A stretch of 7,432 nucleotides of DNA from a virus. Every line of letters starts with the position of its first letter. Within the stretch, counting starts at the first letter, position 1. A model generated the notes under the pieces. The model saw only the letters and a list, made by a program, of their open reading frames with translations. It was not told the origin of the DNA and did not search any database. The position numbers and the translations under genes were made by a program. The stretch is from the IMG/VR virus record IMGVR_UViG_3300007153_000037. The stretch is one strand, 5' to 3'. Shown here in pieces: positions 5,068 to 5,382 of this stretch.

Positions 5068-5321
5068 AGATCGAGGATCTCGCCTGCAATGCCCTTAAGT
5101 CTGGCCAGCAGGTCATCCAGTTGGGCGCCTTCGGTGTCGAGATCCGCAACACGGCGACGGAGCTGGCGAACCTCTCCAGCCAAGCGCGGATAGTCCTCAA
5201 GGACATGGCAAACGGCATCGAGATCAGCACGCCCTGGAGCGTATAGACGGGCGTCAGAGACGAGGTGTGGCGGGATCGGGAGAGGTATTGGCTTGCGCAT
5301 AATGGCCATTACGTTACGCAC
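5064..5321 (-). CDS. Small coiled-coil protein, possible Arc/RHH-like DNA-binding protein, 78-85 aa (paralog of 4558-4929)
   Basis: Possible starts are GTG 5321, ATG 5309 and ATG 5300. From 5300 the product is MRKPIPLPIPPHLVSDARLYAPGRADLDAVCHVLEDY..., resembling Arc-like N-termini of the pattern pfpLRlPpeL...A..gRs. The segment RLAGEVRQLRRRV...LKGIAGE aligns with KLARAEIAELRQQV...LAEVAGQ of the 123-aa protein. In both genes the stop codon lies inside TGATTGGTACC. Confidence 0.6.
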   Translation of the reverse strand: MRNVMAIMRKPIPLPIPPHLVSDARLYAPGRADLDAVCHVLEDYPRLAGEVRQLRRRVADLDTEGAQLDDLLARLKGIAGEILDL

Positions 5322-5382
5322 CGCCCGGAGCTTGCGCTAGTGTCCGGACGGCGCTCAACGTAACGCCTGAATTATGCGAACC
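5292..5382. promoter_or_regulatory. Pair of inverted dif-like sites forming a forked hairpin: candidate XerC/XerD-dependent attP
   Basis: Site 1 (+ strand) is CTTGCGCATAA TGGCCA TTACGTTACGC at 5292-5319, matching 19 of 28 positions of E. coli dif GGTGCGCATAA TGTATA TTATGTTAAAT. Site 2 (- strand, 5382 to 5353) is GGTTCGCATAA TTCAGGCG TTACGTTGAGC. The arms are mutually complementary and the central regions are not. Confidence 0.6.

Follow-up and report, generated by a model that had tools for sequence, protein, structure and literature searches.

Positions 5292-5382 of a 7,432-nt viral sequence (IMG/VR record IMGVR_UViG_3300007153_000037; hereafter the window, meaning the whole stretch of DNA analysed) contain two inverted sites that resemble dif, the chromosomal site at which XerC and XerD, recombinases of the host, act. 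We propose, with a probability of roughly 0.78, that this segment is the attP(+) of a temperate inovirus devoid of integrase, namely a site that would fold on a single DNA strand to be used by the host XerC/XerD in the style of the phage CTXphi, whose attP(+) is described in Vibrio cholerae as a forked hairpin made of attP1 and attP2 (Val et al. 2005, as reviewed in PMC3089051 and PMC4246890). An earlier note, made from the letters of the window, had advanced the same reading, and it is now supported by the strand on which the hairpin is selected, by covariation, by the junctions of integrated relatives and by the existence of a suitable host target. We observed directly the two sites, a covarying fold biased towards one strand, a spacing kept on the partner strand, junctions of relatives with host dif sites, tandem arrays of these relatives and the lack of any recombinase gene in the window.

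Two inverted dif-like sites in one stem-loop

Site 1 occupies positions 5292-5319 of the plus strand (CTTGCGCATAA|TGGCCA|TTACGTTACGC) and site 2 runs from 5382 to 5353 on the minus strand (GGTTCGCATAA|TTCAGGCG|TTACGTTGAGC), exactly the sequences and coordinates that the earlier note had given for them. Their XerC-type arms match dif at 9-10 of 11 positions and their XerD-type arms at 7 of 11. Site 2 has the longer centre and is the equivalent of CTXphi attP1: its XerC-type arm (5372-5382, minus strand; 10/11 matches to dif) is followed by a centre of 8 nt (5364-5371) and by an XerD-type arm (5353-5363) that pairs with 5309-5319. Site 1, with the shorter centre, is the equivalent of attP2. It comprises an XerC-type arm (5292-5302), a 6-nt centre (5303-5308), which gives the bottom strand of the folded structure the spacing canonical for Xer, and an XerD-type arm (5309-5319), the complement of which forms the bottom strand of the folded attP. 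The 33 nt between the two sites (5320-5352) fold into a distal stem (5343-5352 with 5320-5329) and a 13-nt loop (5330-5342).

The sites are located between two open reading frames (ORFs) of the minus strand, with the stop codon of the first in one XerC arm and the ATG of the second in the other, as the earlier note had remarked. ORF61 (5372-5557, a small protein of phrog_13107) has its last codons and stop in the XerC arm of site 2, the TAA at 5374-5372 being the last triplet of the arm. The downstream gene, ORF85/78 (5064-5300, 78 aa, phrog_13909; hereafter ORF85), starts with an ATG at 5300-5298 within the XerC-type arm of site 1. No canonical dif, allowing up to three mismatches, was found in the window, which therefore does not represent a prophage junction.

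When folded with DNA parameters, the minus strand of region 5280-5395 reached -30.0 kcal/mol (z = -4.9; none of 200 shuffled sequences folded as well) and the plus strand -23.1 kcal/mol (z = -2.0). In a sliding 95-nt fold of both strands of the whole window, this hairpin was the most stable structure (-27.6 kcal/mol, against a mean of -10.7 and a standard deviation of 4.25), and an inverted-repeat search independently detected 5292-5382. The predicted structure is one imperfect, unforked stem-loop of 91 nt with 31 bp, rather than the forked hairpin initially described. On the minus strand, it begins with an 8-bp XerC-arm duplex (CGCATAAT paired with ATTATGCG), followed by a 3-nt bulge, 3 bp, a 1x2 internal loop and an 8-bp XerD-arm duplex that ends in a G.T pair; beyond it come a 1x1 A/G mismatch, 12 bp including two G.T pairs, and the 13-nt loop. 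Within the centre of site 2, T5371 pairs with A5303, TCA is bulged out on the top strand, GGC pairs with 5304-5306 and the last G is unpaired. Three stem pairs are thus G.T on the minus strand only and become A.C mismatches on the plus strand, which accounts for the difference in stability between the two strands. The distal stem had been counted as paired at 10 of 12 positions; the stem itself stands, but on the minus strand all 12 are paired when G.T wobbles are included. Single-strand folding was borne out, with the minor correction that the functional strand would be the minus one. Inoviruses such as Ff, Pf and CTXphi package the (+) strand, which is of the same sense as their mRNA; since Zot and nearly all other genes of the window are carried by its minus strand, this would be the packaged strand.

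A chance inverted repeat with a fortuitous likeness to dif is an explanation of virtually negligible probability. Only the short length of the motifs speaks for it; against it, the window has two occurrences of the core pattern CGCATAA-N6-8-TTAYGTT, which 200 shuffles preserving dinucleotide composition failed to produce even once, the fold departs from random expectation as said above, and ~70 distinct homologous hairpins occupy the same genomic position and covary.

Integrated relatives and the covarying fold

These homologous hairpins came from a pool of relatives assembled in several ways. A search based on Zot yielded one contig from a metagenome-assembled genome (MAG) and 33 IMG/VR contigs, and a DNA pattern describing a long-centre dif-like site followed by an inverted XerD arm yielded 89 IMG/VR contigs, mostly of 6-8 kb. 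GenBank added the Pseudomonas aeruginosa prophages Pf 36-2, 42-1, 97-1 and 17897, the phage silverpheasant213 and a 6,976-nt circular 'plasmid', pPHPALO9, all of which carry the hairpin adjoining zot. A metagenome scan with the 19-nt hairpin core gave five matches, four by chance in unrelated DNA and one real (locus L133 of our collection), and a blastn search of the hairpin alone against phages gave none. The window itself stands rather apart: megablast of its whole length found no relative longer than 106 nt in 50,697 phage records and no match in 5,426 E. coli genomes (two short matches in total against phages, E. coli genomes and plasmids), and among the loci L001-L136, nucleotide identity to the window did not exceed ~73%, across less than 40% of the window's length.

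Several relatives are integrated, and their ends can be read directly. Seven contigs contain both ends of a prophage; in these, the whole hairpin marks the left end and a rebuilt dif in the same orientation lies 6.5-7.8 kb downstream; this dif-like site is perfect, its centre measures 6 bp, and the DNA beyond it is not that of the phage. In L008, for example, a host-type XerC arm (GATTCGCATAA) is joined to the phage centre at the left junction, and a phage-type arm (GCTTCGCATAA) is joined to TCTATA-TTATGTTAAAT of the host at the right one. The first two bases of the left XerC arm vary (GC, GA, AG, AC, AT, GT, TT, CG) among otherwise identical hairpins, as expected if this arm comes from the dif of different hosts. 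Two of the closest relatives by Zot (88% amino acid identity to that of the window) represent both states, L019 being a circular free form with the hairpin and L021 an integrated one: they are identical at 300/300 nt up to ...CGCATAATG / ...GCTTCGCATAATG, past which L021 continues with TATATTATGTTAAAT and then with foreign host DNA.

Host dif sites of the type xxTTCGCATAA|TNTATA|TTATGTTAAAT do exist, so the dif-like target that the earlier note required is available, and the prophage junctions that it had suggested inspecting fall, in these relatives, exactly in dif, including that of P. aeruginosa. The dif of strain PAO1, with its flanks, is ACCATG-GATTCGCATAA-TGTATA-TTATGTTAAAT-TAAATA (PMC2731167). 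In L024, ACCATG-GATTCGCATAA is joined to the phage centre, which corresponds to the left half of a split PAO1 dif, and in L026 and L030 a phage arm is followed by TGTATA-TTATGTTAAAT-TAAAT, the right half. L133 carries a hairpin with the window's own centres at a host junction (AGTT... arm, foreign flank) and, 7.1 kb further on, a second hairpin with a GCTT arm preceded by phage sequence, that is, a tandem array. Other arrays occur in L006 and L010, each with two different family members, and in L011, with repeated copies and the centre TTTCAGGCG integrated in a TCTATA dif. The dif centre TCTATA, not TGTATA, characterises the right junctions of L008, L010, L011, L015, L016, L060 and L081; among the proteobacterial dif sites tabulated in PMC2731167, this motif is found exactly in Chromobacterium violaceum only.

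Judging from these junctions of relatives, the crossover is located at the border between the XerC arm and the centre of the long-centre site, which in the window would correspond to 5372/5371. The earlier note had predicted breakpoints at 5302/5303 or 5371/5372, and only the second agrees with the data. It had also entertained, as a fallback, that site 1 alone might work as a double-stranded attP of the VGJphi type, an idea favoured by its canonical 6-bp spacing and its centre TGGCCA, which begins with TG as in dif. Such a route predicts a reverse dif remnant upstream of ORF85, with site 2 and the loop at the Zot end. This layout is seen in none of the seven two-ended prophages, the one-ended junctions (at least eight: L003, L014, L021, L024, L025, L026, L030 and L133) are all of the site 2 type, and no hairpin-bearing locus contains a dif in the opposite orientation or the layout of the short-centre site. 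We accordingly regard a functional double-stranded site 1 as exceedingly improbable.

The geometry of the sites is maintained throughout the family. In 71 distinct hairpins, the centre of the coding (top) strand measures 8 nt (4 hairpins), 9 nt (22), 10 nt (23), 11 nt (8) or 13 nt (14), and that of the partner (bottom) strand 6 nt (53) or 7 nt (18), which matches the 12 nt of CTXphi attP1 and the 5-7 nt of attP2. The window's own 8/6 combination appears again in L065, L095 and L133. The long-centre site lies on the strand of the long ORFs in all 37 contigs of up to 9 kb, and the coding strand gives the stabler fold in 69 of the 71 distinct hairpins, with a mean difference of 5.4 kcal/mol over all 74 table rows.

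To assess covariation, we aligned 45 distinct hairpins of the short class on the structure of the window. Standard pairs fill 90.0% of the cells and 18 of the 38 pairs show changes on both sides, so that the complementarity of the arms, whose loss the earlier note had named as contrary evidence, is indeed kept by compensatory changes. Cells with compensatory changes number 126, as compared with 10-27 when the 3' partners are slid by one to three columns, and the covariation score is 0.266, against at most 0.050 in the slid controls and a mean of 0.103 in shuffles, none of 500 of which reached the observed value. All five central-region pairs adjoining the XerD arm covary, as do 10 of the 21 pairs of the XerD arm and distal stem; compensatory changes affect most distal-stem pairs, where a T.G wobble is present in 42 of the 45 sequences. 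Read on the coding strand, the cells that depart from Watson-Crick pairing are very largely G.T (192 cells, spread over 15 pair columns), with few A.C (5 cells in 2 columns; binomial p = 0.0012). A palindrome selected as a duplex would gain both equally; therefore, this excess argues for selection on one strand of coding sense, which could be the (+) DNA or, formally, the mRNA.

These patterns bear on the main residual rival, according to which site 2 is an ordinary double-stranded attP of the VGJphi type, with a first exchange by XerC on the replicative form, and site 1 and the stem have some different function or are without one. Recombination of a double-stranded site 2 with dif would give exactly the junctions seen in the relatives, and the centre of site 2 is only 8 bp long in the window. 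Yet this explanation leaves unaccounted for that compensatory changes preserve the pairing of site 1 and of the entire stem, that the mismatches are almost only G.T on the coding strand, and that the centre of the partner strand stays at 6-7 nt while that of the cut strand drifts from 8 to 13 nt. Moreover, centres exceed 8 nt in 67 of the 71 family members, and the 12-bp attP1 of CTXphi is no substrate as a duplex. All in all, we consider this rival improbable.

A primary function unrelated to recombination, with an incidental likeness to dif, seems less probable still, and indeed very unlikely. The hairpin might be an RNA structure between ORF61 and ORF85 that occludes the start of the latter, or might work in termination, in packaging or as the origin of the minus strand. 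The strand bias would fit any function exerted in coding sense, RNA included, and the ATG of ORF85 is buried in the stem. Furthermore, in inoviruses both packaging signals and origins of the minus strand take the form of (+)-strand hairpins, Xanthomonas packaging signals being a cited case. Nevertheless, the arms match dif to the extent given above and show Xer spacing on one strand, the relatives recombine with host dif exactly at the arm border, and no Rfam family matches the hairpin region. A rho-independent terminator was rejected: the stem is followed by GCCAATACC, with no T-run, and a terminator scan of 5000-5700 found no terminator-like site on either strand. The same hairpin may have an RNA role alongside recombination, such as hiding the start of ORF85.

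Several points weigh against the folded attP(+). No integrated copy of the window's own phage was found, an exact-protein look-up having placed its Zot in only one other contig, of 1.9 kb and also a free form. The junctions alone cannot separate a folded single-stranded substrate from a double-stranded site 2, and the G.T bias would also be expected from selection on an RNA hairpin in a polycistronic mRNA of the same sense. The 8-nt long centre of the window is the shortest in the family and borderline for an 'extended' centre; since natural double-stranded Xer sites such as cer tolerate centres of 8 bp, spacing alone leaves the double-stranded route possible for the window. Finally, homology beside the cut, where a few Watson-Crick or wobble pairs are expected to stabilise the exchanged strands in CTX-type integration, is minimal in the window, consisting of a T and a possible T.G wobble with a TCTATA dif (the dif of relatives; that of the window's host may differ). 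The P. aeruginosa relatives share TGT with the dif centre TGTATA beside the XerC cut, and the partner strand of the window site offers TG at this place.

With these points weighed, we retain the folded single-strand attP(+) and envisage its use as follows. The pII-type Rep would produce a (+) single strand in which the long-centre site (5382-5353) folds onto the complement of the short-centre site (5319-5292). The resulting duplex would mimic dif, with an 8-bp XerC-arm duplex (CGCATAAT), a 6-nt bottom centre, bulged top bases and an XerD-arm duplex, and host XerC and XerD would bind to it. XerC would then cut the top strand between A5372 and T5371, as well as the top strand of the chromosomal dif, and exchange this one pair of strands only, a second exchange being blocked for lack of homology on the XerD side. 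Replication would turn the pseudo-Holliday junction into a prophage with the host XerC arm and the whole hairpin at its left end and, at its right end, a working dif composed of the phage XerC arm, the host dif centre and the host XerD arm. For the window, the expected junctions would read xxTTCGCATAA-TTCAGGCG on the left and GGTTCGCATAA-Tnnnnn-TTATGTTAAA on the right. The double-stranded form would mask the site, so that tandem copies, through rolling-circle replication, would be the source of new phage. ORF61 stays intact after such an integration and, because both XerC arms are embedded in coding sequence (a stop in one, a start in the other), no gene would be disrupted. From the CTXphi paradigm we infer Xer binding, catalysis by XerC only, the single-stranded DNA substrate, resolution by replication and irreversibility.

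Genome context and associated elements

The window ends in a 24-nt exact direct terminal repeat (1-24 = 7409-7432), which points to a complete circular genome of 7,408 nt. Besides the Zot/pI assembly ATPase (5611-6738; Pfam PF05707, E = 9e-27), its minus strand encodes a pII/G2P-type rolling-circle Rep (2600-3736; Pfam PF05155/PF05144 and phrog_702, E = 1.6e-83), a pVI-like DUF2523 protein recognised with Pfam/PHROGs, a g5p-like ORF and a pIII-like ORF of ~480 aa that crosses the ends, running from ~1115 down to 1 and on from 7432 down to ~7081. A divergent helix-turn-helix (HTH) repressor is encoded on the plus strand at an RstR-like position (3853-4209; Pfam HTH_3, E = 1.9e-13) and indicates a probable temperate lifestyle. 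The window is thus an inovirus of temperate type, and its genes are ordered as in CTXphi/VGJphi-like phages. As the earlier note had stated, no integrase is encoded: Pfam and PHROGs revealed no recombinase or transposase among the 13 ORFs scanned, all long minus-strand ones included; besides Zot, the Rep, the repressor and the pVI-like protein, these ORFs gave proteins of unknown function. A tRNA scan found no tRNA gene in the window.

ORF85 deserves attention for its association with the hairpin. A homologue follows ~50 distinct hairpins of the short class, with its start ATG within the XerC arm in essentially all of them, and is absent from the class of 105-120 nt. The protein has a coiled-coil C-terminus, and PDB sequence searches with ORF85 and with ORF153, encoded nearby, returned only coiled-coil noise. 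A tentative and rather unlikely possibility is that the 91-nt hairpin and ORF85 (phrog_13909) make up a portable integration module, also used by satellites, with ORF85 as a new Xer accessory protein or regulator, analogous in function to XafT/XafV but of unrelated sequence.

Some smaller elements accompany the family. Two proviruses from IMG isolate genomes (L106:4305-7522 and L096) contain a 1.65-kb element whose only parts are the hairpin, an ORF85 homologue and two ORFs of 133 and 114 aa, Rep and structural genes being absent. Its copies lie in tandem at a dif whose left flank resembles that of P. aeruginosa and whose GATT arm is of host type. The element may be a satellite comparable to RS1 and could depend on the phage family. 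A still smaller module of ~185 bp (L013:4917-5101, and also L001, L008, L009, L010, L012 and L015, with a larger version at L011:7960-8291) contains an ORF of ~60 aa (MILTYELVDNPG...) bounded by a dif-like site, GCTTCGCATAA-TGGAGA-TTATGAAAT, and by a second GCTTCGCATAA arm, and sits between the Zot-side genes and the hairpin or rebuilt dif. Its appearance is that of a mini Xer element that first inserted behind a prophage and later became part of the phage genome, an outcome to be expected when tandem arrays give rise to hybrid genomes.

The annotation of the 6,976-nt pPHPALO9 of P. aeruginosa PaLo9 (CP075842.1; L138) describes a non-mobilizable plasmid. Its genes include those for Zot and a DUF2523 protein, with a 374-aa ORF occupying the position of rep, and its hairpin, in the circular free form and adjoining zot, spans the origin of the record; by these features, it is a filamentous phage of this family in replicative form. 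In P. aeruginosa UCBPP-PA14, the dif listed in the supplement of PMC2731167 (CTTAAG-GCTTCGCATAA-TGTATA-TTATGTTAAAC) has a phage-type GCTT arm and a left flank unlike that of PAO1, which suggests that an element of the same kind may sit at the PA14 dif.

Three other regions of the window are possible cis-acting elements. Just past the Zot stop, at 5567-5621 of the minus strand, a G+C-rich hairpin (GCGGGAGGGCTCCCGCTTGCGGGAGGGACCCGC) is near-identical in relatives whose Zot is only 58-88% identical, P. aeruginosa members included, and such conservation suggests a cis element that might, for instance, serve in packaging, as an origin or as a terminator. Between the repressor gene and ORF153, region 4211-4310 ranks second in fold stability within the genome; it comprises three adjacent hairpins about equally stable on both strands, with 4216-4262 being 92% identical to pPHPALO9, and might be an origin of replication or a region used in packaging. 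At 4440-5062, upstream of and inside ORF153, TGGTACCA recurs many times in either orientation, forming inverted repeats that are probably operator or iteron sites. These GGTACC repeats also follow the hairpin in Pf 17897.

Comparison with known Xer-dependent systems

The class of mechanism proposed here is already known. Single-strand Xer integration has been demonstrated for CTXphi and proposed, from attP features, for the CTX-class phages CUS-1phi of E. coli O18:K1:H7 and Ypfphi of Yersinia pestis, which would integrate as single strands at dif (PMC4246890, Table 2; PMC3089051) and are thus earlier candidates for members outside Vibrio. Both belong to a different Zot/Rep clade from the window, the characterised members of whose clade come from P. 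aeruginosa. The same architecture is apparently common in this separate clade of inoviruses, to which belong, besides the 89 IMG/VR contigs, a MAG from groundwater, the P. aeruginosa 'plasmid' and the four prophage groups published from cystic-fibrosis isolates of that species. In the literature searched, no paper connects this clade of Pseudomonas-type inoviruses with dif, with Xer or with a folded attP.

Other phages use the host XerCD at dif and, like the relatives of the window, rebuild dif beside the prophage. Those of the VGJphi type have a single double-stranded attP of 29 bp with a 7-bp centre, those of the TLCphi type have a defective XerD arm and encode XafT, and their integration is reversible. 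The window differs from both in its two inverted sites, which are conserved together, and in the absence of site 1-type junctions among its relatives, and for these reasons a single attP of the VGJ type is not supported. A TLC-type site was rejected because both sites of the window have conserved XerD-type arms (TTACGTT...) and DUF3653, the domain of XafT, had no match in the Pfam scan. ORF85 and ORF153 belong to no Pfam family, nothing XafT-like was seen, and XafV (ORF136 of VGJphi) showed no similarity to ORF85, ORF153 or the repressor in direct comparisons. A more distant parallel is the integron attC, outlined in PMC3089051 as a folded single strand with bulged bases that a tyrosine recombinase joins to a double-stranded partner, with resolution by replication. 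It differs in its recombinase (IntI), its motifs and in moving cassettes rather than phages.

The nearest described relatives are Pf 36-2, Pf 42-1, Pf 97-1 and Pf 17897, filamentous prophages of P. aeruginosa lacking integrase (Evseev et al. 2023, PMC10675462). They share the gene order of the window, and the Zot of Pf 17897 is 58% identical to its own. The published description gives terminal repeats of 11-12 nt and an 'intergenic' site, suggests host integrases and names no dif, Xer or hairpin (PMC10675462). We found that the four records start with TTCGCATAATG, followed by the inverted-dif hairpin, and that this repeat also closes the three that were read to their end. On this sequence evidence, the terminal repeats TTCGCATAATG(T) are the XerC arm plus the bases common to the attP and dif centres, and the published intergenic site is dif. 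Their hairpins are forked and of 116-120 nt, unlike the unforked 91-nt hairpin of the window. That study left the mechanism of integration open. Annotation pipelines could spot such prophages by a hairpin and a rebuilt dif at their boundaries. In addition, the attP(+) variants that occur naturally in the family are compact (91-120 nt), forked or unforked, with bulges of 2-7 nt, and could serve as a series for probing the needs of XerCD in a folded substrate.

The closest functional parallel is CTXphi itself. Its attP1 (AGTGCGTATTA-TGTGGCGCGGCA-TTATGTTGAGG, with a 12-nt centre) and attP2 (AATGCGTATTA-TACGCCA-TTATGTTACGG) are ~90 bp apart and form a forked hairpin of ~150 nt on the (+) strand; XerC swaps one pair of strands, replication completes an irreversible integration, and phage are produced from tandem copies (PMC3089051, PMC4246890). 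Differences from the window are evident: its hairpin measures 91 nt against ~150 nt (a 152-nt region folded here), its 33-nt insert forms one continuous stem-loop instead of a ~90-nt fork, its XerC arms are of the CGCATAA type found in Pseudomonas and enterobacterial dif rather than CGTATTA, and in the window only do both XerC arms overlap coding sequence. The proteins are distantly related, the host lineage differs and the window system is known from sequence alone. The similarities are nonetheless extensive. Both are inoviruses without integrase and with an RstR-like divergent repressor; both have inverted sites with a long centre (12 versus 8 nt) and a short one (5-7 versus 6 nt), the long-centre site lying on the coding (+) strand (that of ctxB in CTXphi) downstream of the last morphogenesis or cargo gene. 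CTXphi and the relatives of the window also keep both sites at one prophage end, rebuild dif at the other and form tandem arrays. When folded with the same parameters, the CTXphi attP region (L136, 152 nt) gave an XerC-arm duplex, a top-strand bulge immediately after the first central base, a few central pairs, an XerD-arm duplex broken at arm position 9 and then the fork, and thus the order of XerC-arm duplex, top-strand bulge and XerD-arm duplex seen in the window. Finally, the XerD arms end in GAGG/ACGG in CTXphi and in GAGC/ACGC in the window, with the same G.T wobble and A/G mismatch at positions 8-9. The wobble is kept in 36 and the mismatch in 30 of the 45 aligned family members, and their presence in both CTXphi and this family points to a functional constraint.

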